Shown: positions 35,403-64,000, numbered from the stretch's first letter. The stretch: 64,000 nucleotides of DNA from Fibrobacterales bacterium (GCA_051532035.1 JAOPTW010000011.1:62043-126042), one strand, 5' to 3'. The notes: a model not told the origin generated them from the sequence alone. Made by a program: numbers and translations.

Positions 35403-35457
35403 AAATATTCCCTGTTAGCACAAGTAATCATTATGTTAAATCATACCCATGCCTGTC

Positions 35458-35598
35458 CTAAGCCAACGTTTCCTTGTCGTTCTTATCCTCTTCACCCATC
35501 GCCTTCAACCTTTTCTTCTCCTTGTGGTAACACTCTCCCCAATACTCTTTATTAACCTCATCACCGTTTGCGCTCGTTCTACTGTTAATCTCGTACAT
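35458..35598 (-). pseudogene. 46-codon chimeric remnant combining a piece related to gene 41348..41851 with the tail of the 272-aa multi-copy family
   Basis: My translation: MYEINSRTSANGDEVNKEYWGECYHKEKKRLKAMGEEDKNDKETLA*. Nucleotides 35519-35570 are ~80% identical to 41431-41480 (GDEFSKEYWEECYHK). Nucleotides 35455-35515 are ~75% identical to the 3' ends at 54658 and 58202 (..KKKRLKA.G..GK.RLA*). Confidence 0.5.
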
Positions 35599-43937: not shown

Positions 43938-44007
43938 TAGTGGCCGCTCATTTGAGACACCCGAAACTGATTTTTTAATTATAAACGAATCGATTTTCCA
44001 TGATACA
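43938..44007. repeat. Junction motifs R2+R3, copy (GTGGCCGCTCATTTGAGACAC + CCGAAACTGATTTTTTAATTATAAACGAATCGATTTTCCATGATACAG)
   Basis: ~80% identical to 58058-58133. R2 alone also occurs at 43212-43230 and 53046-53068. Confidence 0.8.
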
Positions 44008-44841: not shown

Positions 44842-45141
44842 TTACAGCGCCCTACGCAACTCAGTCATTTGGTCCACTACCTCCTTGCCATCTGTACCCT
44901 CAACCCCCACCGCCTTCAACCTCTTCTTCTTTAAATACTGCAGCCTCGCATACTGGCTATTAAACTCCTTGCGTACTTCTGGGGAGTCTTGAAAGGCTCC
45001 ATCTATCCAGTTTCTAATCTCTCGTTCAGTTGTTCGTAGGAGTGAAATACACTGGTCGCGGATGGTTTTGTAATCAGTTGCTAGTGGGAACGCTCTCCCG
45101 AGTAAGGCAAGTTCTACGATATTTTTCAGCACACCGTCCAT
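44842..45141 (-). pseudogene. Truncated, internally deleted copy of the 272-275-aa multi-copy gene family
   Basis: MDGVLKNIVELALLGRAFPL|ATDYKTIRDQCISLLR..IRNWIDGAFQDSPEVRKEFNSQYARLQYLKKKRLKA matches aa ~152-172 and ~205-262 of 54658..55485. It lacks the N-terminal 150 aa and the central block. Confidence 0.75.
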
Positions 45142-45234
45142 AGTTTTTGGTCGTGCTAGAATTTGTTATAGGTAGCATTAAGGGGACTAATATTTTAGAT
45201 TTAGTAAAGACGTCATTTAACTTGCTCAAAAGTC

Positions 45235-46145: not shown

Positions 46146-46186
46146 TTTAGTTGAATAGGGGCCATAGGTAATGTGGTATTACTATA

Positions 46187-46273
46187 ATAAACCAACGCAT
46201 TCTCTCATTCTCAAAGTGGGAATGTCTATCGAGATAGCACACTTGTTACGCTAGCTAAAGATATTTGTTTTTC
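46187..46273 (+). pseudogene. 3'-terminal remnant of a paralog of gene 40488..41288
   Basis: 87 nt, ~85% identical to 41221-41307. That region covers the last ~22 codons, the stop and 20 nt downstream (..aagtgggaatgtctat.gagat.gc.cac.t.ttac.ctagctaa.gatatttgtttttc). Confidence 0.8.
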
Positions 46274-46435
46274 ATATATATATGAAAACGTCGCTATATA
46301 GAATGTCTCAAGCGGCATTGTATAATGATTCACCAACAGGAGGCGGAGGCTATTTGTAGTCATGTATATTGGGGATGTATATTTTCTGTTCAGGTTTCTA
46401 TTATTAAGTAATTGGTACTATTAATGGTTTATTAC

Positions 46436-47337: not shown

Positions 47338-50300
47338 CTACTCAAATGATACTATAAATACGCCTTTCGGTAATGAACTGGAAAGAGAGAGTGTCTCTTT
47401 CTCTACTGTGCCAGACTGTATCAGGGCACCCCGAATACTATAGAGTCTAAACGTTTTTGAATTACGTGGTACGGCAAGGAGGTGTGAACTTCTTTTAATA
47501 TTATTAATGAGCTTCACCGATGAGAATTGAGAGGTGCTTTGAGTATAAGTAATCGCTGTAAGGGCTGATGAGAGAGGAGCGCTGGTGCCTGAAACGAGTA
47601 CCCCCGATGAAGGTGTCATTGTATTCTGAAAAGAGCTGCCGTGATTTCCAGAGTTTGGAGGTATTTCAAATGAGCTACTGGTGTCAGCTACATAAGAAAT
47701 CCCCGGTACGTTATAGTCTGCTGAAGAAGTGAGTGTTTCATCGGTATCATCAGAACTAATCTGTTCCGTATCAGAATATACATCAATCGTCATGATTACT
47801 GGTGCACTCGTGTCTCCAGCTGCAAATGCACGTACCGGTACGTGAAGTCTACCGGTATATTCCTGATTCGGAGTGACCCTCTGGTTGTTAATGGTGTAGT
47901 GCTCTCCAGGCTCTAACAAGAGTGTGATAGCGTCTCTATCCTGGTCTTGTGCATCCGTCATAGCAAGAGTAACTGTAAGGCTGCTATTGAGAGGTATTGT
48001 TTGAGGTGTAGTATGGGTAAGAGTAGGTGGGTAGAGGACAGGGATGACAAAAACTGATAGATACCTTGTGTTACTTGTATCAGAGCCGGAAATGGCTCTT
48101 ACAGGGACATTCAGGGTGCCGCTGTAATTATTTGATGGAATTACTCGATTGTCATCTATAGTATAGCGGTAACCACTTGAAGGTATAACTTTATCTATTG
48201 TGTCACCTTCAAGGTCGATTATTTTAACCATGCTTGGGAGTAATGTGAGAATAGAATCTTCCTTGATTGTTTGTGTTCTAGTGGAGATAAGTGTCGGCGG
48301 GTCGTTTACCGGAGTCACTATAATCGTCATATCAATCGGGGGAGATTTATAACTATATCGGGAAACATAAAGTGGTACCGTCAATATTCCATTGAAATTA
48401 TCATCAGGGATTATGGTTAAATAGGAAACAGTGTAATTGTCACCACTTTGTACATTCAAATAAAAGGGGTCACCATCTATATCTTGGGCGTCAGTCATTG
48501 CAGAGGTGACTGTTAAAGTACTGTCTTCTGGAATTGTCCTCATTTGCGCTGTAGTAATTGTCGGATTGTCTTGTCTACCTCTCACATATATTTCAATAAC
48601 AGAGGTGTCAGAGTCACTATTATCAGTGAGCTGGTACCAGAGAGTGTCAGTTCCATACCAGTCTTTGTATGGTGTGTAGTAGAGAGTATCATTTTGATGC
48701 ACAAAGGTTCCATGGTGGGGAATACTGTCATTTAAAAGAGTAAATGTAAGTGGGTCGCCATCCGGGTCATATCGGTTTGAATTCAGATTATTAGTGGTAA
48801 ATGATGTTAAGGAATCCTCATAGCCATAGCGCGTTATTACATGAGCATTGGGAGGGTTATTTTTGCCCTGCGTTACTACCAGTATTGCCTGATTGCCCCA
48901 TAAGGTATCACCTGATTCAAGTTCTTCTCCTATGCGGTAGCGTAGAGAGTCGACAGTTCCTATAGGGGTATCATCTATAAAGGAGATGTTGTGTAAGGAG
49001 TCAATAAACATATCTCCAAAGAGGCTATCAACGTGTACCACCAGGCTGTCGCCATTTGATTCAATGTCATAGTCATTTTGCAGTACTTGATTGAATGGTG
49101 TTGTCTGCAGGGCAATTATTGAATCTCTAAAGGCCATAGGAGCATTATTTATGTTTAATAGTCCCGCATAGGTTTGAGTGCTTTTTATGATCCAGTCTGA
49201 ACCAAAAGACCATGTACTATATGAACTCTGTTGCCGAAGCTGATCGGTGGTTAACGGTGTGCCCAAAGCAGATGCTGTCTGGTTCGATGTTTCGGTATTC
49301 CAATAGCTCTCAGGTGAACTTATACTGGTGCTACCAACGAGCCCGCCAACAGTATTTTTGCCCCAAACGACACCTGTGCTGTAGCTTTGAAAAATAGTTA
49401 AACCTCCAGAGCCGACTAAGCCACCGACAGTAGTGTTGCCGCTCACTGTTCCAGTATTATAGGTGTTGCTGATCTCCGTATCAAGGTCTCCAACAATTCC
49501 TCCAACGATACTGGTTCCATGGACGTTCCCTGAATTGTAACTCTGGAGAATAGTATGACTTTCTCCTGCTATACCACCTACTCTCTTGCCACCCTTTATG
49601 CTGCCAGTATTAAAGGAGTAAGATATGGTGTCGTCATTGAGGCCTGCTATGCCGCCTACCTGCTCTGAACCGTTAATAGGAGAGATATTAAAAGTATGTA
49701 TGATTTTTTCATAATTTCTACCGGCAATTCCGCCCGTATTTTCTTGACCCTCAATTATTCCTTTGTTGCTGCTATAAGAAATTATGCCATAGTTTAATCC
49801 GGCAATTCCACCGGTAGCATGGCTGTAGTGAGAACTTTTTTCTTGTATATGCGCTTCGTTATAGGAGTGAGATATGGTCCCCCGGTTGGAGCCTGCAATG
49901 CCCCCTACAGTGTATGCGGTTGAGATTACCGACCCTTTGCAGTGTGAATACTGTATTGTACCTTTATTAACTCCTGCAAAGCCACCGACAAAATTCTTTC
50001 CTGTTATTTCAACAGCAAGTCCCAGGCTGTCTACATGAGCGGCTGAGTCTATTGCAGAAAACAAGCCGATATAATCTTCGTTCTTGTGGTTTATGAAGAG
50101 GTTCGAAATGGTGTTGCCGGCTCCATTAAAATAACCAGAGAACCCTCCGGTACCGTAGCCTATCGGAGAAAAACCGAAGCCATGATTGTCGGTTTTTGAG
50201 TCTGTTGCATCAATGTTTTGTGTTAACCTGTATGAACCGTAGAGTGGGTGAGTCGATACATTTCCAATCTTTTTAAGGTCTTCATAGGTTGCAATAGGGA

Positions 50301-52863
50301 TAATGGTATCGATAAAAGGCACTGCGATACTACTCCAGTTACCCCATAGTATGGCTCCCGATGTTAATTCTTCTCCCGGTCGATAATAACGATACAGTGA
50401 ATCTCGTGTTTCATTAATAGAGGAATAGGGTATTTCTATAGCTTTTGTAACAGGTGTATCGTCGGGATCAAAATCATTTTGAATAAAAACAGATAAGTCT
50501 ATTGGGTTATTCAGAGACTGAACTGAATCCATAAAACCGATGGGGGCATCATTGACACCGCGTAAACCCGGAAAACTTTGACCCTCATGTAACTCCCAGA
50601 TAGTGGTACGGTCCCAAGGAATAAATGGGTCCAGTTGTTTCATGCGATCCGTATTCAGGGGAGTACCGCCCCCTGAAGAGTCTATACCGGAGGTTTCTAT
50701 GTTCCAATAGCCTGATCCGTTACCACGTCCCGGTGCGCTTCCGGAATTGTCAGCACCGATTAATCCACCAAGATTACTGATACCGATAACTTTTCCGGTA
50801 CTATAACAGCGGGTGGTCGTCTCACCGTTTACTCCTACGAGCCCCCCGATGTTGTAATTGCCCTGAACAGCCGCAGTGCTGTAGGCGTTCCGGATTGTGT
50901 CCTGGTTACTTCCGGTGAGGCCCCCAATGTTGTTCCTGCCTTTCACAAATCCGGTTGAGTAACTCTGTGAAATAATACCGAGACTCGTTCCGGCATAAAC
51001 GCCTACATAGTTATTTCCAATTATTGTTCCTTCTGTTCCAAGGCTGTCAATTCGAGCAGTCTCTCCAAGTGTGCTGAATAATCCAACGTTGTCTTCTGTT
51101 GGTCTATTAATGTATAGGTTGGTAATAACATATCCTGAACCGTTAAATGAGCCGGAAAAATGTCTAGAGATTGTACCTATAGGGTCGAACCCTGCGCCGT
51201 TATTTTCATAGTGAGAAGCAGATGCGTCAATATTTTGAGTCAATCGATAATTGATGTTTAAGGGGTAACGCCAATGTTTTCCTATGCGTTTAAGCTCCTC
51301 GTAGGATGAAATGGTAATTTCTTGCTGCGTAAAGGGCATTGATATATGGACAGATCCACCCCACAGAGTGTCTCCTGAAGGAGTGATCTCTCCAGGACGG
51401 TAGAATATGTAGAGTGAGTCGACATCGTTAGGAATTGAGTCTATTTCAGGAATCATTTTTGAATATTGGTCGTATTTTACGAGCGTAACGTGAGGAATTT
51501 CAGCATCAAAATCATTGTTGAGAAAAGGGGAGTAGTCTATAGGGTCAGTAAGTGCAGGGGAAATGTCTGGAAAGCCAAATGGAGCATTGTTAAAGGTTGC
51601 ATCATTTAGAGCAGGATACGTCTGGTTGTTTGGGTTTTTCCAAATGGGAAGAGACCAATTAAAGTGGGAGGTGAGCTGTTTTAATCCCTGCGTAGTAAGT
51701 GAAGTCGCGGTAAGAGGTGTACTGCCATGGGGGTTTGACCCGACAGCGGAATCAAGGGTGGATGTCTCTCTGTTCCAGTAATTATTGGTAACTGTGGCAT
51801 GATAGAAGTCGAGCCATGCGGTGCCGACAAGGCCTCCAATTGACACATTTCCAGTAATATATCCACTACTGTAACAGTTGTCTATACTTCCAAGAGTGAA
51901 TCCTATGAGCCCACCAACATCCATGTGACCATGGACACGTGCAGTACTATAACTTTGCTCGACAATGTAGTTGTAAGGAAAGCCGGAAGAGGCATCGTTG
52001 CTACCTATAAGGCCTCCAACGCTCTGATATCCTTCCACAGGTCCCGTACTGTAACAACGATTAACGGAACCTCTATTGGAACCTATGATGCCACCCACAC
52101 TGTATTTACCTGTAACTGTTCCTGTTGAATAACTTAATTCCAGTAATCCGTCGTTAAATCCGGTAATGCCCCCAATTGTTCTCTCGCCATGTATTGCACC
52201 AATATTATAGCTTGATAGTATTGTACTTCTGTTTTGACCGGTAATACCGCCGATATCTTCTTTGCCCTGAATAGAACCTCTGTTGATGCACGCTTTAAAG
52301 GTAAATTTTGTGCTATAGCCGGATATTCCCCCCACGCGCCGTTCTCCATTTACACGCGCTTCATTTTGTACATTATAGATGGTGCTGTTGAGTATTCCGG
52401 CAATACCTCCAACATAGTCTTTTCCGGTAATTTGACCGGTTATCGTCAGGTTTGCTATATGCGAAGTAGTGTCTCTATTTGAAATACTATCCAATAGAGC
52501 AAAAAGTCCAATGGTATCCTGATGAGGGCGGTTGATGTATAGATCGGTGATTTTAAAGTTTTTACCATCCAGCCATCCCTTAAATGGACGTTTAGTTCCT
52601 CCGATTGGTGCAAAGCCTTTTCCACTGTTTTCATTGAGCGAGGCTGAAGCATCAATATCGTTTGTTAATATGTAATATGCGGTGAGGTTGCTATCTACTT
52701 GCTTTAAGTCAGCATAATCAGCAATTTCATAGGGATTACTTTTGAACCCTGAACCGGAGAGTTGCCCATCGACGGCATGGGTTGTACCCATACTGAGTAA
52801 AATGATGTAGAGTATTGAGGGAAAAGCATGATCTTGTAATAGTAATTGGAATATAGCTTTCAT
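47338..52863 (-). CDS. Giant (1841 aa) surface protein with three GLUG-repeat modules, cadherin-like/tandem repeats, a Ser-rich linker and a T9SS-type C-terminal domain
   Basis: Signal peptide. A ~370-aa module (Y[EA]DLK.[IV]....Y.LT[NQ][DN]IDA[ST].S then many [VI]GG[IL][IVT]G GLUG motifs) occurs three times. Repeats are bounded by NNPPNA, QDNPTI, VNDPPTL, LYPPTL. Tail: FRLYSIRGALIQSG...LPKGVFIVSFE. Confidence 0.85.
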   Translation of the reverse strand: MKAIFQLLLQDHAFPSILYIILLSMGTTHAVDGQLSGSGFKSNPYEIADYADLKQVDSNLTAYYILTNDIDASASLNENSGKGFAPIGGTKRPFKGWLDGKNFKITDLYINRPHQDTIGLFALLDSISNRDTTSHIANLTITGQITGKDYVGGIAGILNSTIYNVQNEARVNGERRVGGISGYSTKFTFKACINRGSIQGKEDIGGITGQNRSTILSSYNIGAIHGERTIGGITGFNDGLLELSYSTGTVTGKYSVGGIIGSNRGSVNRCYSTGPVEGYQSVGGLIGSNDASSGFPYNYIVEQSYSTARVHGHMDVGGLIGFTLGSIDNCYSSGYITGNVSIGGLVGTAWLDFYHATVTNNYWNRETSTLDSAVGSNPHGSTPLTATSLTTQGLKQLTSHFNWSLPIWKNPNNQTYPALNDATFNNAPFGFPDISPALTDPIDYSPFLNNDFDAEIPHVTLVKYDQYSKMIPEIDSIPNDVDSLYIFYRPGEITPSGDTLWGGSVHISMPFTQQEITISSYEELKRIGKHWRYPLNINYRLTQNIDASASHYENNGAGFDPIGTISRHFSGSFNGSGYVITNLYINRPTEDNVGLFSTLGETARIDSLGTEGTIIGNNYVGVYAGTSLGIISQSYSTGFVKGRNNIGGLTGSNQDTIRNAYSTAAVQGNYNIGGLVGVNGETTTRCYSTGKVIGISNLGGLIGADNSGSAPGRGNGSGYWNIETSGIDSSGGGTPLNTDRMKQLDPFIPWDRTTIWELHEGQSFPGLRGVNDAPIGFMDSVQSLNNPIDLSVFIQNDFDPDDTPVTKAIEIPYSSINETRDSLYRYYRPGEELTSGAILWGNWSSIAVPFIDTIIPIATYEDLKKIGNVSTHPLYGSYRLTQNIDATDSKTDNHGFGFSPIGYGTGGFSGYFNGAGNTISNLFINHKNEDYIGLFSAIDSAAHVDSLGLAVEITGKNFVGGFAGVNKGTIQYSHCKGSVISTAYTVGGIAGSNRGTISHSYNEAHIQEKSSHYSHATGGIAGLNYGIISYSSNKGIIEGQENTGGIAGRNYEKIIHTFNISPINGSEQVGGIAGLNDDTISYSFNTGSIKGGKRVGGIAGESHTILQSYNSGNVHGTSIVGGIVGDLDTEISNTYNTGTVSGNTTVGGLVGSGGLTIFQSYSTGVVWGKNTVGGLVGSTSISSPESYWNTETSNQTASALGTPLTTDQLRQQSSYSTWSFGSDWIIKSTQTYAGLLNINNAPMAFRDSIIALQTTPFNQVLQNDYDIESNGDSLVVHVDSLFGDMFIDSLHNISFIDDTPIGTVDSLRYRIGEELESGDTLWGNQAILVVTQGKNNPPNAHVITRYGYEDSLTSFTTNNLNSNRYDPDGDPLTFTLLNDSIPHHGTFVHQNDTLYYTPYKDWYGTDTLWYQLTDNSDSDTSVIEIYVRGRQDNPTITTAQMRTIPEDSTLTVTSAMTDAQDIDGDPFYLNVQSGDNYTVSYLTIIPDDNFNGILTVPLYVSRYSYKSPPIDMTIIVTPVNDPPTLISTRTQTIKEDSILTLLPSMVKIIDLEGDTIDKVIPSSGYRYTIDDNRVIPSNNYSGTLNVPVRAISGSDTSNTRYLSVFVIPVLYPPTLTHTTPQTIPLNSSLTVTLAMTDAQDQDRDAITLLLEPGEHYTINNQRVTPNQEYTGRLHVPVRAFAAGDTSAPVIMTIDVYSDTEQISSDDTDETLTSSADYNVPGISYVADTSSSFEIPPNSGNHGSSFQNTMTPSSGVLVSGTSAPLSSALTAITYTQSTSQFSSVKLINNIKRSSHLLAVPRNSKTFRLYSIRGALIQSGTVEKETLSLSSSLPKGVFIVSFE

Positions 52864-53090: not shown

Positions 53091-53382
53091 AACCTCTCCT
53101 TCCCATCCTTACCTTCAACTCCCTGCGCCTTCAACCTCTTCTTCTTTAAATACTGCAGCCTCGCATACGGGCTATTAAACTCCTTGCGTACTTCGGGGGA
53201 GTCTTGAAAGGCTCCATCTATCCAGTTTCTAATCTCAACTTCAGATTGTCTGAGGAGTGAAATACACTGGTCGCGGATGGTTTTGTAATCAGTTGCTTGG
53301 AACCTCTCTGCATGGGCGAGGACTTTGAGTTCACGGAGTTCTGTTACGAGGGCGTCAGCTTCATCCCAGAGGTGAGTATCAA
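53091..53382 (-). pseudogene. 5'-truncated copy (about the C-terminal 95 codons) of the 272-275-aa multi-copy family; normal stop lost
   Basis: The minus-strand translation ..DTHLWDEADALVTELRELKVLAHAERFQATDYKTIRDQCISLLRQSEVEIRNWIDGAFQDSPEVRKEFNSPYARLQYLKKKRLKAQGVEGKDGK.. is collinear with 54658..55485. Homology stops at gtatcaa|tacctaatgt, exactly where R1 copy c begins. Confidence 0.8.
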
Positions 53383-53470
53383 TACCTAATGTATTCTTCT
53401 AACACAATGTAGGCTCAATTGTGGATATAGGAAAGGGCAAGGGTATTTGTTTGGAGATCGAATAGTGTTT
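53381..53470. repeat. Junction motif R1, copy c
   Basis: aatacctaatgtattcttctaacacaatgtaggctcaattgtgg... matches 43228-43320. Confidence 0.85.
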
Positions 53471-54626: not shown

Positions 54627-54657
54627 TGTTTCTAAATTAAAATTCGCACCAACGGCC

Positions 54658-55485
54658 CTAAGCCAACCTCTCCTTCCCATCCTTACCCTCAACACCCTGT
54701 GCCTTCAACCGTTTCTTTTTCAAATACTGCTGCCTTGCATACTGGCTATTAAACTCCTTGCGTACTTCGGGGGAGTCTTGAAAGGCTACATCTATCCAGT
54801 TTCTAATCTTAACTTCAGTTGCTCTGAGGAGTGAAATACACTGGTCGCGGATGGTTTTGAAATCAGTTGCTTGGAACCTCTCTGCATGGGCGAGGACTTT
54901 GAGTTCACGGAGTTCTGTTGCGAGGACGTCAGCTTCATCCCAGAGGTGCGTATCAAAAATGACGGGGGAGTTGTCGAGGGGGAGTGCTCTGCCGAGTAAG
55001 GCGAGTTCTACGATATCTTTCAGCACACCGTCCATAGCTTTTGATTTATTAAAAGAGATGATCCGTTTAATATGGCGTGGTTCTTTCATGCACACCAGTT
55101 TTAATATTTTAACCATCTTAGAACGCAGCTCCTTGGCTTCAGGGGCGCGCTGTGTCCAGAGGTCGCGGTCGGTGGTTTCGGTACGTAACTTTTGCTTAAA
55201 GAGTATGTCGGCATGCTGTGCGGCCCGAGACTGCATGATTGCTTTATGCGCGGTCTCTTTGCTAAACCCAAAGGTCTTGAGTGCTTTTAAGTGATTGAGT
55301 GCAGTCTTACCCAGTTCCTCTACTTCAAAGAGGTACGTATCGATACGCATTGAGGGAATGTGGAGTGCATTGGTCGGTTGCGCAGTGATCTCGTCGATAA
55401 TAAGGTCATAACACGCCTCAGGTTGGTCGGGAACCTCAGAGCTGGGCCTGGTATAGGGGCTTTTGCTATCGTTTTTGCTACTCAT
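54658..55485 (-). CDS. Uncharacterised 275-aa helical cytoplasmic protein, multi-copy family, full copy 1
   Basis: GAGGGAG RBS 5 nt upstream of the ATG. aa 1-157 differ at one residue from copy 2 (58202..59020). A central block is divergent and the C-terminal block is conserved. I recognise no catalytic or DNA-binding motif. Confidence 0.8.
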   Translation of the reverse strand: MSSKNDSKSPYTRPSSEVPDQPEACYDLIIDEITAQPTNALHIPSMRIDTYLFEVEELGKTALNHLKALKTFGFSKETAHKAIMQSRAAQHADILFKQKLRTETTDRDLWTQRAPEAKELRSKMVKILKLVCMKEPRHIKRIISFNKSKAMDGVLKDIVELALLGRALPLDNSPVIFDTHLWDEADVLATELRELKVLAHAERFQATDFKTIRDQCISLLRATEVKIRNWIDVAFQDSPEVRKEFNSQYARQQYLKKKRLKAQGVEGKDGKERLA

Positions 55486-55684
55486 GGTGTCTCCCTCGGG
55501 TTAATTCCTACCCATATGTTACTCAATGCTATCCATATTTGGTTGATTCAATATGTCCTTTCGGGAGTGTTCAAAATTCTGTGTAACTAGCGATAATACG
55601 TTGCAGTAAATTAAAACATAATTTTTGTCACAATTTCCCCATTGGATTCGTCTAATATGGTCAGATAATAAGTTTGAATTTTAA

Positions 55685-57883
55685 ATGGAGAAAAAAATGA
55701 AGTTAATAATTATTTTGACAACTGCTGTTTTTGTGATGATTGCGGGAGCGAGTGTACCACAAAAGGCTCTAATAGACCAATATGACCCATCTTATGGATG
55801 GGACTGGAATGATCATGATTGGTGGAATGCATTAAATGAACACATTACTTCCATTGAAATTCCCAAGCCAACCGTTCCAGAAAATTTCCATAGTGTTTTT
55901 AGTACAAATGAAAATAAGATGACAAAAGGTGATGGTTGGTTGCTCTATACCAGAAGATTGTTAGAGTCGGACTCTCGCGGGTATCAGAATTATTTTTTTG
56001 ATTATGGACTTGAAGAGAATGAACCTTATGAACACCCATATAATTTTGAAACCTTGGGGACAAAATTAAACGCGAGTGTAAAGTACTATGCCTTGTATAA
56101 TAAGTATACAGGTGTTTTAAGGTTCTTTATATTTAATGAATTTGATCCTGCTGATTTTCAAACTCTCAACCATGCCCTGGGACTAGAAATAAATGGTGCA
56201 ACTTATTCGTCTCATAGATTTTTCAGTACATCGGCCGACAATTATTATCCTAAGAACTATGCAAGTTATGGTCACGTAGTCAAAGGGCCTATACCGGCGG
56301 AGTATGAATTGTTGAATAGTGCTAATCTGCAAAAAAAATGGTTAATCGTCGATGTTCCACTTGATTATAATAATGATAATCTGAGTGCCGGTGAAGTGGA
56401 CTTTAAACTTACTACCCAAAAAGTGCGTGTAGATAAGATAAATCTAAATGGAACAATCGTGACAGAAGAAGAAGTTCCTAAAAATGATGGCGGATTTTTT
56501 GGGAGTTTGGTTGGGGCAGCGGCTAAAGGTGCTTTAAACTATTTTGCTCCTGTAATTGGCGGTTATGCAGGGCAGGAAATTGTGGATCAATTCACTGGAA
56601 TGTTTTTTAATGAAAACTCATGTTATGATGACCCGATGCTAGAGGCTATGCAGGTTAAGTTAGAGTCTTCTACTTCCGATAAACTTGCAAGCAATATAAA
56701 AGATTTGGATTTGGTTTCTAAGGTTACTAATAGAGGTGGAAGTACAGAAATTGTATTTAAAGAATCAAAGGTTAATCTGTCAGGAGAAATCACAAATGAC
56801 TCTGAAACATCATTAAGAGTATCTATGCCTGTAATAGGATCTAAATTTGAGAACGAAGCAGATGTTCCGTACCTTGCAAAATCAAAAGAGGTTTCTCAAT
56901 TAGGATTGTTTTATTTTAACAATCCTCCAAAGGCAACTCTATTTGGGCGAAAAGGTGGGGGAATTCATGAACTTCATATTGAAGACTTTACCAAATGTGG
57001 TAATTTGGTCATAAATCCAGAGTCTGGAAATGAACTTGTTGATTATAATGCTAATATTTCACTCACAGCCTCAACGTCACATTCGTATATGCAGGATGGA
57101 CATTTTGGTCCTATATATACAACGGATTATGGAACGTTGATATCGAATTCTTCTAATTTCCTGTCTCCTAGTCAATGGAGGTCAATACCCCTTTATTCGC
57201 CCACTGCTACTAATATTACATCACCAAAAATGACTATGAAAGTGTACTTAAAATTTAGGTATACTGATGGATATGGTCAGGTAAAATATAATGAGTTTGT
57301 ACAGAGCTATGACGTTAATGTATCTGTATCTATGGTTGACCCGAACGGAGTGCAACCATATAAATATGAATTCTGTGCGGAGCAACATAACAGATTGCAG
57401 GCTGGATTAGATAATTATAGTATGACATTTTGGTCAGATTGGCCAGTGTATTATGATTTAAATACTGAGGCAACAGGCGGTGATGCATTGTATAATGTTG
57501 GTTATATAGGTGTTGTAGATGCTTATGCAGATAATGTATATTACCCTGACACTTGGCGTATAACACATGCCTTGGATGAACAAAACGTATACACTAGCAT
57601 TAATGGGCCAGGTACATTGAAGTTCTCGTGGGCACTTGGGGAGGGAGAAAAAATTGCTATGAATGGCTATATGCCTGTTTCATCAGCTCAATTGAAATTG
57701 TATGTTGATGATGTTGAAGTTGAATTGACTTCTTTGCCATCGGACTGGATGCATGAAGAAATCGGAATAGAAAGTGGTGTTCATACAATTAGATGGGCTA
57801 TGGGGTCGGCATTGTTAGATCATGTAACATGGCAACCAATAAATATTGTACCTACTATTATTACACCTTTATTACTTAATTAA
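55685..57883 (+). CDS. Secreted 732-aa protein of unknown function, transcribed divergently from family copy 1
   Basis: Signal peptide MKLIIILTTAVFVMIAGASVP. No recognisable domain. The start could instead be ATG 55697. Confidence 0.7.
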   Translation: MEKKMKLIIILTTAVFVMIAGASVPQKALIDQYDPSYGWDWNDHDWWNALNEHITSIEIPKPTVPENFHSVFSTNENKMTKGDGWLLYTRRLLESDSRGYQNYFFDYGLEENEPYEHPYNFETLGTKLNASVKYYALYNKYTGVLRFFIFNEFDPADFQTLNHALGLEINGATYSSHRFFSTSADNYYPKNYASYGHVVKGPIPAEYELLNSANLQKKWLIVDVPLDYNNDNLSAGEVDFKLTTQKVRVDKINLNGTIVTEEEVPKNDGGFFGSLVGAAAKGALNYFAPVIGGYAGQEIVDQFTGMFFNENSCYDDPMLEAMQVKLESSTSDKLASNIKDLDLVSKVTNRGGSTEIVFKESKVNLSGEITNDSETSLRVSMPVIGSKFENEADVPYLAKSKEVSQLGLFYFNNPPKATLFGRKGGGIHELHIEDFTKCGNLVINPESGNELVDYNANISLTASTSHSYMQDGHFGPIYTTDYGTLISNSSNFLSPSQWRSIPLYSPTATNITSPKMTMKVYLKFRYTDGYGQVKYNEFVQSYDVNVSVSMVDPNGVQPYKYEFCAEQHNRLQAGLDNYSMTFWSDWPVYYDLNTEATGGDALYNVGYIGVVDAYADNVYYPDTWRITHALDEQNVYTSINGPGTLKFSWALGEGEKIAMNGYMPVSSAQLKLYVDDVEVELTSLPSDWMHEEIGIESGVHTIRWAMGSALLDHVTWQPINIVPTIITPLLLN

Positions 57884-57913
57884 TCACTACCAAGCAGAAT
57901 AAAGTAATTGAAT

Positions 57914-57962
57914 TACGCAGCATTTTTTCTATTCACTGAAGTGGAAAAATGCTGCGTACATT
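57914..57962 (+). terminator. Strong rho-independent terminator
   Basis: 14-bp stem tacgcagcattttt / aaaaatgctgcgta, followed by cattttg. Confidence 0.8.
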
Positions 57963-58057
57963 TTGTGAACAGATTTACATCTTCAAGCTAGGTACCTACC
58001 AATTGTACAGAAGACAAGTACCTTTCTTTGAATTAAAATATTCCTACTTATATTCAC

Positions 58058-58133
58058 AGTGGCTGAACACATAAGACAACCGAAACTGGTTTTTTAATTA
58101 AGAACGTATCGATTTCATGATACATGAGTATCT
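58058..58133. repeat. Junction motifs R2+R3 copy
   Basis: agtggctgaacacataagacaaccgaaactggttttttaattaagaacgtatcgatttcatgatacatg, matched against 43938-44007. Confidence 0.8.
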
Positions 58134-58201
58134 TCCTGTGGTGATACTCTATAGGGACTGGAAAGAATAGTATAGAGTGAATTCCTCGTGTTGACGTCCT
58201 C

Positions 58202-59020
58202 CTAAGCCAACCTCTCCTTCCCATCAACACCCACCGTCTTCAACCGTTTCTTTTTCAAATACTGCTGTCTCGCATACGGGCTATTAAACTCCTTGCGTAC
58301 TTCTGGGGAGTCTTGAAAGGCTACATCTATCCAATTTCTAATCTCGACTTCAGTTGCTCTGAGGAGTGAAATACACTGGTCGCGGATGGTTTTGTAATTC
58401 GTTGCACGGGACCGCTCTACTATAGCGAGCTTTTTGAGATCACGGAGTTCCGTTATGAGGGCGTCTGCTTCATCCCAGATGTGAGTATCAAAAATGACGG
58501 GGGAGTCTTCGAGGGGGAGTGCCCTGCCGAATAGAGCAAGGTCGGTGAGGTCTTTTAACACACCGTCCATCGCTTTTGATTTATTAAAAGAGATGATCCT
58601 TTTAATATGGCGTGGTTCTTTCATGCACACCAGTTTTAAAATTTTAACCATCTTAGAACGCAGTTCTTTTGCTTCAGGGGCGCGCTGTGTCCAGAGGTCA
58701 CGGTCGGTGGTTTCGGTGCGTAACTTTTGCTTAAAGAGTATGTCGGCGTGCTGTGCGGCCCGAGACTGCATGATTGCTTTATGCGCGGTCTCTTTGCTAA
58801 ACCCAAATGTCTTGAGTGCTTTTAAGTGATTGAGTGCAGTCTTACCCAGTTCTTCTACTTCAAAGAGGTACGTATCGATACGCATAGAGGGAATGTGGAG
58901 TGCATTGGTCGGTTGCGCAGTAATCTCGTCGATAATAAGGTCATAACACGCCTCAGGTTGGTCGGGAACCTTAGAGCTGGGCCTGGTATAGGGGCTTTTG
59001 CTATCGTTCTTGCTACTCAT
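58202..59020 (-). CDS. Uncharacterised 272-aa helical cytoplasmic protein, multi-copy family, full copy 2
   Basis: Same RBS and 5' region as copy 1. Mosaic identity pattern relative to copy 1. Lies immediately downstream of the left 21-bp repeat array. Confidence 0.8.
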   Translation of the reverse strand: MSSKNDSKSPYTRPSSKVPDQPEACYDLIIDEITAQPTNALHIPSMRIDTYLFEVEELGKTALNHLKALKTFGFSKETAHKAIMQSRAAQHADILFKQKLRTETTDRDLWTQRAPEAKELRSKMVKILKLVCMKEPRHIKRIISFNKSKAMDGVLKDLTDLALFGRALPLEDSPVIFDTHIWDEADALITELRDLKKLAIVERSRATNYKTIRDQCISLLRATEVEIRNWIDVAFQDSPEVRKEFNSPYARQQYLKKKRLKTVGVDGKERLA

Positions 59021-59029
59021 GGTGTCTCC

Positions 59030-59262
59030 CTCGGGTTAATTCCTATCCATATGCAACGGTTTGCTATAGATATTGGGTGGTTTGCTGTCCATATGTATGC
59101 TGATGCTATCCATATTGGGCAATTTCCTATCCATATGTTGTCGAATGCTATTGGTATGTGCAGGTTTGCTCTACCTATGCAAGCGGATGCTCTCCATATG
59201 TTGTAATTTCCTATCCATAGGTCACTCGATGCTATCCATATTGGGTTGATTCAGTATATCCT
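59030..59262 (-). repeat. Left array: ~11 tandem degenerate 21-bp units (consensus on + strand nnTGCTATCCATATGnnnnnn)
   Basis: The core CCATAT or a one-mismatch variant starts at 59047, 59068, 59089, 59110, 59131, 59152, 59173, 59194, 59215, 59236 and ~59257, an exact 21-bp phase. The copy-1 locus (55505-55560) has only 2-3 units. Confidence 0.9.
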
Positions 59263-59547
59263 TTCTTACCAGTATTGAGTAATTAAATATCTGTTTTTAC
59301 TAAAGATTTATGGATATTCAATGATTGTAAGTCATGCTATCTTAGCTATATCCAAATCTTTATTAAACTATTACCTGTATTCTATAATTCATTGCCAATA
59401 CTCAAAGGTATCAAATATTAAGTATTACTGTCTTATGATTCATATATCATGGTTTAATATAGAGCAACACTATTTAGAATTTTTCTGAGCTAGGCATTTA
59501 GATACTCAGTCCTTACAGTCAACTCATTATCCCTAGGAAAGCTTTAC
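59263..59547. other. AT-rich ORF-free spacer between the two inverted 21-bp arrays
   Basis: About 285 bp, visibly AT-rich, with no ORF of 60 aa or more on either strand. Confidence 0.7.
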
Positions 59548-59885
59548 TCAGATCTGTGACTCCATATGGCAGTAATTCAGGTCGAGTGTGTAGTAAAGCG
59601 TACGCAGATGGTAGGTAATTCGTGAGATATGGGTAGTATTTACTCAGATATTGGTTGTAATTGCCTCAATATGGACGGTATTCTATGAAATATGAGGGTA
59701 AATGAGCACAATAGGGTAGGGATTATACCGGAGATCGTATTGCGGAGACTGTATATGGTATGTAATGACCTGAATAGGGCATGCATTCTATTGAGTATGG
59801 GTGTAAATGAGGTCATTAGCGTCGTAATTGAACTGAATATCGGAGTAAATCACCCAGATTGACACTCAAATGTGTAGAATCTAGG
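59548..59885 (+). repeat. Right array: ~14-16 tandem degenerate 21-bp units in inverted orientation (consensus GTAAWTnnnnnnn(G)AATATGG)
   Basis: The core ATATGG or a variant starts at 59564 (inside the palindrome CCATATGG), 59585, 59606, 59627, 59648, 59669, 59690, 59711, 59732, 59753, 59774, 59795, 59816, 59837, 59858 and 59879, an exact 21-bp phase. AATATGGAyrGyA is the reverse complement of the left-array core. Confidence 0.9.
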
Positions 59886-59934
59886 GGTGGTTTGGAGCAG
59901 GGTGGTGTGTATGGGTGCGTATTAACGGTTCGAG

Positions 59935-60075
59935 GGGGAGTGGATGTTGTCTCTTGTGAATGATGTTGGTTTTTCCGTTGTAATTTGAGGGGGAATTTTT
60001 AGGTTTATGGTGTAAATTTACCTGCTGAGTGATAAGGGTTGTATTGGCTTGCGCATAATTACAACTGAAGTACAC
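59935..60075 (+). repeat. Repeat A, copy 1 (upstream leader shared with 62262-62400)
   Basis: Shared blocks: tctcttgtga.tgat, ttggttt...cgttgtaatt.a..gg.ga, ttacctgctg.gt.at.ag. Confidence 0.7.
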
Positions 60076-60092
60076 CAAAGAAATATTGTAAA

Positions 60093-60503
60093 ATGATGCA
60101 CTTAATATTGACTACTGCTCTAGGATTAATCTGCATATTGACGGGATTAATTAGCTTGAGAAAATACGATAGATTGAATAAAACATCATTCAAGTTTGGC
60201 GTTGCATATATTGTATTTACAGCTATTTTTAATTTCACAATTATATGGCTAGATTCTCAAGGACCCGACAATGGTATAATCATTTCCATGATGGTTTATA
60301 GTATAATAAATTTTCCATTCTCAATAATTGCCTATGCTAATTCGCCCTTAATATGGATGATTTTAATTTACTCTGGTTTAATTGGGACTATCGAATTTGT
60401 CTTGATAGGAAAATTAATAAATAACTTCACTTCAAGAAATGATGATGACGGAAACAGCAAGATAACATCTATATGTCCCCCCAAGTCAAGTGGAAAGCAT
60501 TGA
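60093..60503 (+). CDS. Small membrane protein (cassette gene 1)
   Basis: 136 aa with 4 hydrophobic helices. The last ~13 codons and the stop lie inside conserved module CR1. Confidence 0.6.
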   Translation: MMHLILTTALGLICILTGLISLRKYDRLNKTSFKFGVAYIVFTAIFNFTIIWLDSQGPDNGIIISMMVYSIINFPFSIIAYANSPLIWMILIYSGLIGTIEFVLIGKLINNFTSRNDDDGNSKITSICPPKSSGKH

Positions 60504-60768
60504 TTCCCCTCAAATAGTTTTACTTGACTTCTCACTCCTGAATCTCTTATACGACTCTATGGAAGAGTGAAATGACTTACCAGCGGATATAAGTCATATA
60601 CTCAATAATGTGTATTGTAAGGGAGGCGCTGTAATGCCTCTCTATGGTAGTATCTTTTGAGAATGGCGATAGTTTAATCAGAATGAGCAATCAGAGCTAG
60701 GGAAGGGTACAGCTTCAGTGGGAATTAGCTAGATTATTTGTTATAAATCAACTCTCTGTACAATAAGA
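60464..60768 (+). repeat. Conserved inter-cassette module CR, copy 1 (~305 bp)
   Basis: Left core AACATCTATATGTCCCCCC. IR aagtcaagt(31 nt)acttgactt at 60483-60530. Hairpin atgactta/taagtcat. Hairpin gggaggc..gcctc at 60621-60642. Block 60667-60737 is identical in CR3 and CR4. Right end ctgtaNrATAAGA. Confidence 0.9.
60738..60764 (+). promoter_or_regulatory. Sigma-70-like promoter candidate at the right end of CR1 (TTGTTA-15 nt-TACAAT), facing gene 60783
   Basis: The equivalent positions are TTGTTA-15-TAGAAT in CR3 (63020-63046) and GTGTTA-15-TATGAT in CR4 (63764-63790). All three -10 boxes keep TAnnAT despite substitutions. The spacer is short at 15 nt. Confidence 0.3.
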
Positions 60769-60782
60769 TTTAACTGCGACCT

Positions 60783-61166
60783 ATGATTAAATATTTACTC
60801 ACTTTGCTTTTGACTTGCTCAATTTTTAGCTGTGTCTCCACAGATTCTGAATCCTCTTGTTCTGTGGGAACGCCACTTACGCCTCAATTACAAATAAATA
60901 ACAACATTGACTTACGCCTTTCGGTTATATACGAAAAAATTATGTCCTTCCCAGTGCACTCACTAGATTCTCTAGTTACACTCAGTAGCTTGCCTAGAGA
61001 AGACTCTTTCAAAATATATTTGATTAACCTGTCATCAGAAACCACATCTAAAGATTCAGTCTCTTTTTCAACAATGAGTCATAACAGCTATTATCTAAAT
61101 ATTGATGAAGGGCCGAATAATTCGCTAGAATTTGACATTACCTATAAAGACAAATATTGCGAATAA
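60783..61166 (+). CDS. Small lipoprotein (cassette gene 2)
   Basis: Lipobox LLTCSIFSCVS. 127 aa. Followed at 61190-61208 by a vestigial CR left core (aacatctatagctcccccc). Confidence 0.6.
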   Translation: MIKYLLTLLLTCSIFSCVSTDSESSCSVGTPLTPQLQINNNIDLRLSVIYEKIMSFPVHSLDSLVTLSSLPREDSFKIYLINLSSETTSKDSVSFSTMSHNSYYLNIDEGPNNSLEFDITYKDKYCE

Positions 61167-61549
61167 CTTATTTGCAAAGTGTAGCAGTTAACATCTATAG
61201 CTCCCCCCGTTTATAATCGAGGGGGTTATACAGGTGATTTAAATTTCTTTAGTGCCCCAGTTTAATAATGAGAGTGCTCTATTGTAGATGTATGTTGTGG
61301 GGTACTCTTACCCCATTATTGAGATGTTTAGAGGTAGGGGAGTTTAAAAAAAATGTTCTTATACATCTTATTCAAAAATCATGTAACCTTTTCCAATAAT
61401 AGCGGCGTCAAATCCTTAGAGACAAAAAAAGAATATTTTGCATCTTGGTATTTACTATGAACTTTTACGCGGCTGAGACAAATCCTGACTTAGATTTGGA
61501 TTATTCTACAGCCTCGTATCCCCTCTAGACTAATTCATCATGAGGAAAC

Positions 61550-62062
61550 ATGAAATCCTTCGCAATTATAATCATCCTTCTTTGTTCGAGTCTGTATTCT
61601 AAATCGACCTATCATATGTTTGCTGTTCGCCCCCTAACTATAGGCGATCCTGATGCTAGCCATTTGCTTCCCACTAGAATTGTCTCGTATTATTGTCAGT
61701 ATAAATCACTGGTCTTTGCAATTGAGCCAATCTACATCTTTGATGGGGAATTTGGAAATGCAGGATACGGAGGCTCAACATCAATCATGTTTTTTGAAAA
61801 CGACAGAACTATATTTGCTCCAGGAGCAACTGTCTCTATTCTTAATCCCACTAATGGAAGTATTACACCGGAAATATTTTTTAGACTTCAATTGTTGAAT
61901 TCAAGGAACAAATGGTACTTGTTTGGCATGGAGGCATTGTTAGGGTATGGTCTAAAAAGAATGAATACAACCGCACTTATTCATGATACCGAAGCACAAA
62001 CATCAAGTGGCTTTACGTTTAGATTAGGCTTCGAAATTGGCTTTAAGTACAAACATAGATAA
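61550..62062 (+). CDS. Small secreted beta-barrel-like protein (cassette gene 3)
   Basis: Signal peptide. Alternating strands. Followed 32 nt later by the partial module CR2. Confidence 0.6.
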   Translation: MKSFAIIIILLCSSLYSKSTYHMFAVRPLTIGDPDASHLLPTRIVSYYCQYKSLVFAIEPIYIFDGEFGNAGYGGSTSIMFFENDRTIFAPGATVSILNPTNGSITPEIFFRLQLLNSRNKWYLFGMEALLGYGLKRMNTTALIHDTEAQTSSGFTFRLGFEIGFKYKHR

Positions 62063-62093
62063 AAGAAGAACAAAAATTAACTACAGAGGTGAT

Positions 62094-62176
62094 ACCATCT
62101 ATTTGCCCCCCAAGTCACGTAAAGAATCTTGATTCACCTCAAATTGTTTTACTTGGCTTCTCACTCCTGAATCTCA
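62094..62176 (+). repeat. CR copy 2 (left ~85 bp only), joined to repeat A copy 2
   Basis: accatctatttgccccccaagtcacgtaaagaatcttgattcacctcaaattgttttacttggcttctcactcctgaatctc, after which homology to CR1 ends. Confidence 0.85.
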
Positions 62177-62261
62177 CACTGCTCCCTGCATCGGTAACCT
62201 ATTCTCATATGGCTCTGCTTTCTGTATCAATTGAATGGGCGGTCCGGCATCTTACTGAGGA

Positions 62262-62400
62262 TGGGGAGTTGGGTGGTTTCTCTTGTGATTGATTGTGTAT
62301 TTGTAAGTGAATAGGGGGTGATATTTGGTTTGACGTTGTAATTGAATGGAGGATTAGTAGATTTATTGCATAGACTTACCTGCTGTGTAATCAGAGATAT
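62262..62400 (+). repeat. Repeat A, copy 2
   Basis: See 59935-60075. It lies directly upstream of gene 62406. Confidence 0.7.
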
Positions 62401-62405
62401 TTGGA

Positions 62406-62723
62406 ATGCTTCGACGACCAAAAGAAACTCAATTAGAAAAAGCCGACTTGTTTCCTGTAATAAGGTTTAATTACTTTCCTCTAGTTTTTGCATCAATATT
62501 ACTGCCAATTTTAAGTTTGGGATTTATCAACGTTAGTTATGGTAATAGAAGTAACCTTGATTTAAAGGTATACAGAAAAGTCGTTCGTCAAAAGTATGAA
62601 GTAGAAGAAAGAGGTTTTTACTATTTTAAAGACGGAAAACTAATTCTGCGCCCATTCTTTGGAACAATTGTAGGTGTATTTCTTTTCATAGCTTCGTTTG
62701 GTGTTATGACTTCGATACTATAA
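62406..62723 (+). CDS. Small membrane protein (cassette gene 4)
   Basis: 105 aa with two hydrophobic helices. Unrelated to the other cassette ORFs. Confidence 0.55.
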   Translation: MLRRPKETQLEKADLFPVIRFNYFPLVFASILLPILSLGFINVSYGNRSNLDLKVYRKVVRQKYEVEERGFYYFKDGKLILRPFFGTIVGVFLFIASFGVMTSIL

Positions 62724-62747
62724 GTATTTAGCGCCTAATCGACATAT

Positions 62748-63050
62748 ACCATCTATATACCCCCCCAAGCCAAGTAAAGAATCTTGATTCCCCTCAATTG
62801 TATTACTTGACTTCTCACTGCTGAATCTCTTATATGACTCTATAGTGGAGTGAAATGACTTAACAGCGGATACGCGTCATATACTCAATAATGTGTATTA
62901 TAAGGTGGTGCTATAATACCTCTCTATGGTAGTATCTTTTGAGAATGACGATAGTTTAATCAGAATGAGCAATCAGAGCTAGGGAAGGGTACAGCTTCAG
63001 TGGGAATTAGCTAGATTATTTGTTAGAAATCAACCCTCTGTAGAATAAGA
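62748..63050 (+). repeat. CR copy 3 (full length)
   Basis: Collinear with CR1. The hairpin at 62902-62924 carries a compensatory C-G to T-A change. Confidence 0.9.
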
Positions 63051-63165
63051 GCTAGCCTGCATCTACACCTAATTAATCATTAATTATAAAAAGTTTGAAC
63101 TTTCATTCACATTTTAATATTACCCATCGTCTAAAGATGTATAACATTCAAAAATCAGGAAAAAT

Positions 63166-63504
63166 ATGAAATTATTTACTAAAACAATCATAGGCTTAAC
63201 CTTAATTTGTGCTGTTTTCACTTCAAATACTTATGCAGGAAACACAAGTGGGCAAAAAGTATCAATTAACGAAATCAATTTTAATTCCGGAAGCATTTAT
63301 TTCCAATTAAGCTCTGAAATGTTTGATTGTAAAAATGGTACACACTTAAAACTTAATGAAAATTCAAATAAAGATTTATATGCAGCATTATTAAATACAT
63401 ATGCAACGAATGGAAAACTTATAATTGAATGGGTACATTGCTATGATGGAAGTGTCGGAGACCTAAATTCAGGAACTGGTGTAAAAATTCGATTCAGCAA
63501 GTAA
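63166..63504 (+). CDS. Small secreted protein (cassette gene 5)
   Basis: Signal peptide MKLFTKTIIGLTLICAVFTSNTYA. RBS AGGAAA. 112 aa. Confidence 0.65.
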   Translation: MKLFTKTIIGLTLICAVFTSNTYAGNTSGQKVSINEINFNSGSIYFQLSSEMFDCKNGTHLKLNENSNKDLYAALLNTYATNGKLIIEWVHCYDGSVGDLNSGTGVKIRFSK

Positions 63505-63530
63505 ACCTTGCACCTTACAACAGCAGGCTT

Positions 63531-63794
63531 ACGTCTATATGCCCTCCAAGTCAAGTAAAAAATATTGATTCATCTCAACTGTTTTACCTGACTTCTCACT
63601 TATGAATCTCTTATACGAGTCATATACTCAATAATGTGTATTGTAAGGGAGGCGCTATAGTGCCTCCCTTAGGTGTTATCTTTTGAGAATGGTGATAGTT
63701 TAATCAGAATGAGCAATCAGAGCTAGGGAAGGGTACAGCTTCAGTGGGAATTAGCTAGATTATGTGTTAGAAATCAACCGTCTGTATGATAAGA
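63531..63794 (+). repeat. CR copy 4 (full length apart from a 38-nt internal deletion)
   Basis: Collinear with CR1. It lacks ctctatgg...gatataa, the left arm of the second hairpin. Hairpin gggaggc/gcctccc at 63647-63668 is perfect. Confidence 0.9.
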
Positions 63795-63846
63795 GTTATA
63801 TGGCTTTTGATTACATATTATTTCTGCTCACCAAATAGGATTTGTA

Positions 63847-64000
63847 ATGTCTCCCACTAATAAACTTGGCACACCAAAAGATTTAGATAGTATCACATTA
63901 AACGATGTGCTTGAAAATAAGGTTTGGGTTTGGACCTGGGAAGTAAACCTTGACGAAGAATATGATGAATCCTGGCAGTTGCCTATAATTGGACTTGATG
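63847..64000 (+). CDS. Hypothetical protein, N-terminal 51 codons only (cassette gene 6, runs off the window)
   Basis: Not in the track. ATG 63847 followed by an open frame to the window end (MSPTNKLGTPKDLDSITLNDVLENKVWVWTWEVNLDEEYDESWQLPIIGLD). No signal peptide. Confidence 0.45.
   Translation, partial: MSPTNKLGTPKDLDSITLNDVLENKVWVWTWEVNLDEEYDESWQLPIIGLD

Follow-up and report, generated by a model that had tools for sequence, protein, structure and literature searches.

Mosaic paralogs and truncated relics in a deep-sea Fibrobacterales genome: a probable local gene-family expansion patched by general homologous recombination

Introduction

Ectopic gene conversion and concerted evolution among bacterial paralogs, accompanied by pseudogene relics, are established phenomena, with tufA/tufB as an example. 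The pilE/pilS, Borrelia vlsE/vls and Anaplasma msp2 systems combine full-length copies with promoter-less partial copies that lack the 5' part, and show evidence of tract transfer. Here we describe a locus that resembles both types of system. It lies in a 64,000-nucleotide (nt) stretch of the genome of a Fibrobacterales bacterium (GCA_051532035.1, JAOPTW010000011.1:62043-126042; hereafter, the window) and consists of two intact copies, A and B, of a gene encoding a protein of 275 or 272 amino acids (aa), together with three partial copies, F53, F45 and F35 (Table 1). With conversion of the tufA/tufB type, the locus shares mosaic blocks of identity, a phylogeny that is discordant along the gene, general homologous recombination and truncated relics alongside the intact genes; it differs in that the copies have not been homogenised (synonymous divergence, dS, of 0.15-0.6) and in that exchange is rare and patchy. 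The likeness to pilE/pilS, vlsE/vls and msp2 extends to the two classes of copies and the signs of tract transfer, whereas the product here is soluble and cytoplasmic, the partial copies hold no diversity, diversifying selection is absent and the relics are decaying.

Based on comparison of the copies with each other, with those of a sister genome and with a wider protein family, we conclude that the locus is probably a lineage-specific, locally clustered expansion of paralogs, the patchwork of which stems from general homologous recombination, with neither programmed switching nor a mobile element involved. The eye-catching mosaic would then have an ordinary explanation, namely old paralogs plus ectopic recombination. 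The expansion would lie in a plastic island of the chromosome, among genes for small, mutually unrelated exported proteins, the host being a deep-sea, cellulose-degrading member of the Fibrobacterales. A and B would stem from an old duplication, with strong purifying selection preserving the function of both, no fewer than three other paralogs would have been cut down to promoter-less relics by deletions and rearrangements, and general homologous recombination, through ectopic gene conversion or crossover, would have moved tracts among the diverged copies. As a result, the centre of B would be much older than its flanks, and the orthologue of B in the sister species would carry a 3' half of the fragment type.

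Two old paralogs with a divergent centre

Both intact open reading frames (ORFs) lie on the minus strand, exactly where the initial annotation, which was made from the sequence alone, had placed them. The two proteins, encoded on a 140-kb contig, are 91% identical, and residues 1-157 differ solely by E17K, in agreement with the reported identity of 156 of the 157 N-terminal residues. Nucleotide homology (54657-55543 versus 58201-59078) extends from the stop codon to a point ~58-80 nt 5' of the ATG, a second match of 58 nt lying past ~58 nt, and includes the ribosome-binding site (RBS) and leader, likewise as initially described. Divergence is distributed unevenly along the coding sequence (CDS): the copies differ at 14 of 447 positions in the 5' block (CDS nt 1-447; 96.9% identity), at 39 of 179 in the centre (nt 448-626; 78.2%) and at 11 of 169 in the 3' block (nt 627-795; 93.5%), the heterogeneity between the centre and the rest being highly significant (p=4e-12). 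The return to close similarity 3' of the centre had been noted correctly. The divergence of the central block was also seen correctly, with 17 of the 55 residues at aa 158-212 differing, but calling it strong was somewhat of an overstatement, and the tract begins at nt ~450 (aa 150).

The substitution pattern shows that the copies have been separate for a long time. Between codons 1 and 149, 13 synonymous differences are accompanied by a single nonsynonymous one (dS 0.15; ratio of nonsynonymous to synonymous divergence, dN/dS or omega, 0.02), and with such a ratio the N-terminal near-identity reflects purifying selection and not recent homogenisation. The corresponding values are dS 0.50 and dN/dS 0.36 in the centre, and dS 0.18 and dN/dS 0.20 in the 3' part. 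Divergence at synonymous sites is ~3 times higher in the centre than in the flanks (p=0.004); therefore, relaxed constraint alone is insufficient to account for the centre, and a tract of older ancestry is indicated. A and B are old duplicates held functional by strong purifying selection.

Recombination between copies

The genome tPB_Fibr1 (JAOPTX/JAOPTP), a sister metagenome-assembled genome (MAG), originates from a biofilm found on cellulose “transparent paperboard” in the deep sea (855 m), in which two Fibrobacteres populations predominate and for which matched metagenome (DNA reads, SRR21695763) and metatranscriptome (RNA reads, SRR21695762) data exist (PMC11980830). Judging by the series of locus tags, the window probably belongs to the second of these populations. 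It is ~89% identical to tPB_Fibr1 along the syntenic stretch, and a word-indexed protein search with a single query matched only the source genome and this sister genome. The sister species has a single full-length copy, L, which a nonsense codon splits into two annotated genes, OCC49_17580 and OCC49_17575. By position, copy L is the orthologue of B, with the same repeat arrays upstream and a 5' part that groups with B.

We counted odd-one-out sites in the triplet A/B/L and evaluated them by Fisher and MaxChi permutation tests. The ratio of sites with A to sites with B as the odd one out is 21:3 before nt ~450 and 9:30 in the centre (Fisher p=5e-7; MaxChi permutation p<=0.001); B stands alone at 30 of 40 informative sites in the centre versus 3 of 39 in the 5' part. 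Copy L accordingly groups with B before nt ~450 and with A and the fragments after it, and its 3' half, together with ~55 nt of downstream flank, is F53-like. Because the topology of copy L switches at CDS nt ~450, ectopic recombination between the paralogs is real. Only two haplotypes of the centre exist among the six sequences, with F53, F45, the sister fragment and copy L all being of the A type, whereas F35 lacks the tract. The exchange of tracts, in which copies of the fragment type also took part, has taken place on an evolutionary time scale, as expected of general homologous recombination among dispersed repeats, and we infer that it is incidental rather than programmed.

Relics in the window and in the sister genome

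Nucleotide and protein matches confirmed the partial copies reported at 53091-53382, 44842-45141 and 35458-35598, the last of these matches being weak (tblastn E=0.016; blastn E=9e-8). F53 has a frame that is open over ~100 codons, with a dN/dS of 0.27 relative to A, and at its 5' junction it meets a 66-nt copy of 43228-43293; F45 is annotated as a protein in the public record. All three fragments lack codons 1-150 and the leader and, having neither a promoter nor the 5' coding region, resemble in this respect the silent copies of pilE/pilS-type systems. The further claim that no partial copy retains the 5' part holds within the window but not in the sister genome, where one relic keeps an N-terminal segment and another has lost the 3' end (Table 1); because the sister relics retain other parts of the gene, the “3' only” rule fails lineage-wide.

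The relics are at differing stages of decay, those of the sister genome being a copy with a nonsense codon, one with an internal deletion and a fragment from the interior of the gene, and the open frames of F53 and F45 fit a recent truncation of once-functional paralogs. The fragments annotated in the OCD01 series and the sister pair OCC49_17575/17580 are pieces of pseudogenes and not separate genes. Short dispersed repeats of 60-100 nt with 81-88% identity are found at the edges of fragments and of neighbouring genes (Table 1), marking the region at 35-64 kb as heavily rearranged.

The 5' ends of F53 (53382) and of the sister fragment (11908 on its contig) lie ~6 nt apart in gene coordinates (nt ~531-537), and their upstream flanks are non-homologous. 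The near-coincidence could reflect a shared ancient truncation followed by replacement of the flank, chance, or a preferred break site. A site-specific cut at the shared breakpoint was considered and dropped, the alignment upstream of the breakpoint being ambiguous.

A divergent branch of a widespread all-alpha family

The initial annotation recognised no family, catalytic motif or signal peptide in the protein. The absence of a catalytic domain and of a signal peptide has been upheld, whereas a family does exist. An exhaustive HMMER search (phmmer) retrieved 195 representatives at E<=1e-3, most of them 230-290 aa long and with alignments that span the whole length, and at E<=1e-10 the family comprises 495 clusters. 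These are distributed over several phyla, including Bacteroidota, Calditrichota, Spirochaetota, Aminicenantes, Marinimicrobia and others, and are always labelled hypothetical. The homology extends over the full length of this all-alpha family of ~247 aa, which is characterised by the motifs MIQDLxDLxxLG and IRDxAYTxLKxxVDEIRxxGxxxF.

The window proteins have no credible match in Pfam, PHROG or NCBIfam, and 50 family members gave no match in Pfam, PADLOC or PHROG. The closest named group is NF052641 (“PQLLE family”), which is matched by 39 of 50 members (best E 5.8e-11), all under its 80-bit cut-off; copy B scores 16.4 bits (E 0.0057; residues 183-240) and copy A does not match. Because the scores are below the curated cut-off, we consider the gene a distant relative of the PQLLE family and not a member. 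The two are similar in length (~211-250 aa) and in all-alpha character, but the scores fall far short of the cut-off and the name carries no function; a search of the literature found no mention of the PQLLE family.

The AlphaFold2 model built with the family alignment is all-helical and confident (predicted local distance difference test, pLDDT, 93.3; predicted template modelling score 0.83), with a 55-residue helix and no strands; it was used in place of the single-sequence model, which was unusable (pLDDT 48). A profile search of PDB sequences with the family alignment gave nothing significant, Rop being its only match (E 0.28), and no fused Pfam domains were found in the longer family members. 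The A and B proteins are soluble and basic (isoelectric point 9.2), with a Lys/Arg-rich C-terminal tail, the net charge of which is +6/+7. They have no signal peptide, a maximal 19-residue hydropathy of 1.08 and a grand average of hydropathy of -0.54, and do not have the character of surface or secreted proteins.

At 88 loci from genomes and metagenomes, there is always one family copy per locus, and clustering of the genes around these loci revealed no recurrent neighbour; small ORFs located upstream at three family loci are mutually unrelated and provide no operon partner. The family was not detected by tblastn in 72,556 plasmids and 50,697 phages, nor in IMG/VR, and a scan for the close subfamily in Joint Genome Institute metagenomes and IMG/VR gave no match. 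Among 185,579 species genomes (GTDB scan), the A/B-type subfamily is found in tPB_Fibr1 only. A paralog with 53% identity comes from the same tPB metagenome, and a further one, with 37% identity, is accompanied by a 3' fragment of its own type. Given the restriction of the A/B subfamily to this lineage and the one copy per locus elsewhere, the local multiplicity is peculiar to the tPB Fibrobacterales. The gene represents a lineage-specific and divergent offshoot within a widespread family of cytoplasmic all-alpha proteins that carries no annotation. At first flagged as an orphan, it now has its place in a large family of conserved hypothetical proteins that spans several phyla, and a confident all-alpha model of it is available.

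Phased 21-bp arrays upstream of copy B

Iteron-controlled rep genes and plasmid centromeres of the parC/sopC type are the known systems with which the sequences upstream of copy B can be compared. Two arrays of phased 21-bp units, separated by an AT-rich spacer, occupy the interval between copy B and the first ORF of a cassette-like series described below. The sister species retains the proximal array unit for unit, at 94.8% identity, which exceeds the conservation of the synonymous sites of the gene, and the distal array at 88.8%. In the leader of copy A (55498-55539), exactly unit 1 of the B array is fused to unit 10, and since A keeps these two units, the array was part of the duplicated unit.

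As in the iteron and centromere systems, direct, helically phased units of ~21 bp abut the start of the gene and a second cluster lies across an AT-rich core; the 10 x 21 bp and ~14 x 21 bp found here correspond to the phased repeats of ~17-22 bp that adjoin iteron-type Rep genes. The locus differs from those systems in being chromosomal, with no plasmid or partition genes nearby, in the absence of a winged-helix, ribbon-helix-helix or helix-turn-helix signature from a protein with a purely helical model, and in the absence of upstream arrays from the other members that were inspected, the paralog with 53% identity among them. Neither a match to a Rep fold or family nor a plasmid homologue was found, and the neighbouring genes are chromosomal. 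It is plausible that the arrays are iteron- or operator-like and that the protein stands in a DNA-binding or autoregulatory relation to them. With low confidence, we suggest that the protein may bind nucleic acid, possibly the 21-bp repeats that were co-duplicated with the 5' end of the gene. An origin of replication (oriC) was rejected, as the GC skew does not switch here and there is no dnaA context among the ORFs scanned; a CsrA-sponge RNA was likewise rejected, the distal array having no GGA and being inverted. The conserved double array and the neighbouring series of promoter cassettes are the parts of the locus worth pursuing.

Weighing of alternative explanations

The initial annotation attributed the conserved-variable-conserved pattern to gene conversion from orphan donors, in the manner of pilE/pilS or the orphan modules of polymorphic loci. 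In a programmed process of this kind, A and B would be expression loci and the central block would periodically be overwritten from silent 3' donors, as in pilE/pilS, vls, msp2 or the orphan modules of polymorphic toxin loci. As far as the recombination history is concerned, the attribution stands: the mosaic is real, with a centre dS three times that of the flanks and a supported switch at nt ~450, promoter-less 3' fragments free of internal stops are present within 10-25 kb, and the sister-species copy has a 3' half of the fragment (F53) type. A dedicated system is nevertheless highly improbable, as the protein lacks both a signal peptide and any hydrophobic segment and the wider family is cytoplasmic, housekeeping-like and represented by one copy per locus. 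With only two types of centre, and with fragments that share the A type, there is no diversity to offer; moreover, the block is incomplete in F53, which starts within it, mostly deleted in F45 and missing from F35. The centre, at omega 0.36, is not under diversifying selection, divergence between the copies at dS 0.15-0.6 means that exchange is rare on the evolutionary scale, and the relics are decaying, with the full-length copy of the sister species a nonsense pseudogene. The second proposal of the initial annotation, that the gene is the signature of a novel element, mobile or recombining, whose repeated insertion left truncated copies, would account for five copies and fragments within 24 kb, the degraded copies in the sister genome, the additional paralog types in the same metagenome, the setting within a rearranged island where other short repeats are dispersed, and the few distant relatives that lie near transposases. 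We nonetheless set it aside as very unlikely: searches of the window copies and 50 relatives against Pfam, NCBIfam, PHROG and PADLOC revealed no transposase, recombinase, integrase or nuclease domain, A, B, F53 and F45 are not bounded by terminal inverted repeats or by conserved ends, and the copies are old (dS >=0.15) and under purifying selection instead of near-identical. The absence of the family from the plasmids, phages and IMG/VR and its occurrence at 88 loci as one copy with no conserved partner point in the same direction. An assembly artefact, in the form of chimeras or collapsed repeats, has to be considered for a short-read metagenome with two related Fibrobacterales populations, given that a single CLC assembly of short reads, made from a biofilm in which two related Fibrobacteres predominate (PMC11980830), is the source of the MAGs and that repeats of ~900 nt are hard for such assembly. 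This is extremely unlikely, however, considering that contigs of the two populations share no identical stretch (the maximum is ~95%), that reads can separate A from B because their differences are spread every ~30 nt, that fragments and arrays recur in independent sister contigs with orthologous flanks, and that the substitutions are biologically coherent, being mostly synonymous.

A doubtful reading, although compatible with a history of paralogy and conversion, is that the protein serves as a sequence-specific DNA-binding factor for the 21-bp arrays, an autoregulator or an iteron- or centromere-like organiser that would control or organise the island. The ten phased units that abut the B start codon, two of which (1 and 10) were inherited by A, the between-species conservation of the proximal array, the second, inverted array across a spacer of 28% GC and the basic protein with its Lys/Arg-rich tail are consistent with such a role, but the protein has no recognised DNA-binding domain or fold, the other members examined have no upstream arrays, copy A is apparently functional with two units only, and it may be a different factor, or the divergent promoter of the cassettes, that the arrays serve. 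Extended to the whole island, the 272-aa protein would be a founding DNA-binding organiser that acts on two inverted arrays (24 units) around the AT-rich core and governs the exchange and expression of promoter-ORF cassettes for exported proteins, the relics being scars of cassette exchange; this proposal has only a slim chance of being correct, and if true, it would describe an integron-like cassette system without a tyrosine recombinase. Several observations also weigh against the explanation we prefer, a paralog expansion patched by incidental recombination. Over ~100 codons, neither F53 nor F45 is interrupted by a stop or a frameshift, and both show omega of 0.2-0.3 relative to the intact copies, a pattern that would also fit donor sequences under selection or occasional refreshment by conversion, and the 3' end is present in all three relics of the window. 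A Foldseek comparison with PDB and BFVD, suggested initially as a route to a recognisable fold, yielded generic helical bundles alone (template modelling score <=0.39; none at E<=1e-3). Finally, the copies adjoin variable genes for exported proteins and a cassette array that varies between species, to which they could be functionally linked.

Table 1. Coordinates of the gene copies, their parts and the associated repeats. Positions refer to the window unless a contig of the sister genome (L001 or L007) is named.
Feature	Position	Strand	Remarks
Copy A, intact paralog, 275 aa (NCBI OCD01_04165)	54658..55485	-	ORF; identical protein on record
Leader of A	55486..55562	-	Shared RBS and two 21-bp units at 55498-55539
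Central divergent tract of A (CDS nt 448-626)	54860..55038	-	Common type, also in the sister-species copy and fragments
Copy B, intact paralog, 272 aa (NCBI OCD01_04175)	58202..59020	-	ORF; identical protein on record
Central tract of B	58395..58573	-	Outlier haplotype
Proximal array, 10 phased 21-bp units	59033..59242	-	CATATGGATAGCAAA..., core CATATGGATAG; ends 12 nt before the B ATG
AT-rich spacer, 300 bp	59251..59550	.	28% GC; between the arrays
Distal array, ~14 phased 21-bp units	59555..59848	+	Core ATATGGnnGTAA; ATATGG-type motif inverted versus the proximal array
F53, codons ~178-275	53091..53382	-	Start codon absent, normal stop lost, no internal stops
F45, 99-aa ORF from internal Met151	44842..45149	-	ORF 44842-45141, relic 44881-45149; in-frame 35-codon deletion (aa 171-205)
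F35, tail only (~aa 244-275, 55% identity)	35457..35598	-	Joined to a 60-nt copy of 41405-41468
Sister full-length copy L	L001 9605-10435		Only full-length copy in the sister species; GAA-to-TAA nonsense, codon 116
Sister internal fragment	L001 11908-12067		3' end absent
Sister internally deleted copy	L007		Residues ~43-93 kept
Dispersed repeat pairs	43228-43293 = 53381-53446; 41211-41313 = 46177-46279; 43939-44007 = 58058-58124; 35507-35566 = 41405-41468		
~100-nt post-stop repeat	60460-60557; 61186-61208; 62090-62186; 62744-62840; 63526-63621; L007 942-1068		

Genomic surroundings

The genes around the locus are ordinary chromosomal ones, encoding glycoside hydrolases, chemoreceptors and two-component systems, and no integrase was detected among the ORFs scanned with Pfam (14.5-47 kb and 53.5-58 kb). 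The divergent pairing of A and B with cargo, to which the initial annotation drew attention, is correct as a positional fact; the plus-strand neighbours are mutually unrelated exported ORFans. Divergent from copy A, a 732-aa protein with a signal peptide (55685-57883, plus strand) has no match in Pfam, PHROG or NCBIfam and is followed by a 22-nt hairpin (57914-57958).

Beyond the arrays upstream of copy B lies a cassette-like series (59900-64000) of five unrelated small exported or membrane ORFs, starting at 60093, 60783, 61550, 62406 and 63166 (60093-63504). A conserved repeat of ~300 nt, with an extended -10-like core (CTGTAnAAT) as its end, precedes each of them. All five units are missing from the sister genome (L001 8380-8760), where the junction falls inside the CTGTAnAAT core. 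The segment at 60093-64000 is reminiscent of integrons and rAID-1-type elements in its small, unrelated, same-strand ORFs with a conserved repeat between them, its variation in content between genomes and the divergent gene at one end. It differs from them in that no tyrosine recombinase was found, in that the ~300-nt repeats end in a promoter-like core and not in an attC hairpin, and in that the change between genomes is explicable by homologous recombination between the repeats. The divergent gene shows no homology to integrases, and a search of the inter-cassette repeats against Rfam at gathering thresholds gave no hit. The series looks like a set of portable promoter modules that recombine homologously rather than an integron.

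In both genomes, a repeat of ~100 nt, which contains the inverted repeat AAGTCAAGT...ACTTGACTT, directly follows the stop codons of several genes for exported proteins (Table 1), suggesting a shared terminator or an element akin to repetitive extragenic palindromes (REP-like). Elsewhere in the window, a 654-aa protein (37594-39558, minus strand) combines a domain resembling the large subunit of Fe-only hydrogenases and 4Fe-4S motifs with a methyl-accepting chemotaxis signalling domain and, judged by this composition, may be a redox- or H2-sensing chemoreceptor. Two exported proteins are repetitive: one of 1841 aa (47338-52863, minus strand), with many GGI/GGL-type repeats and tandem-95 repeats, and one of 892 aa (7040-9718, plus strand), with 18/90-nt tandem repeats (8113-8719).

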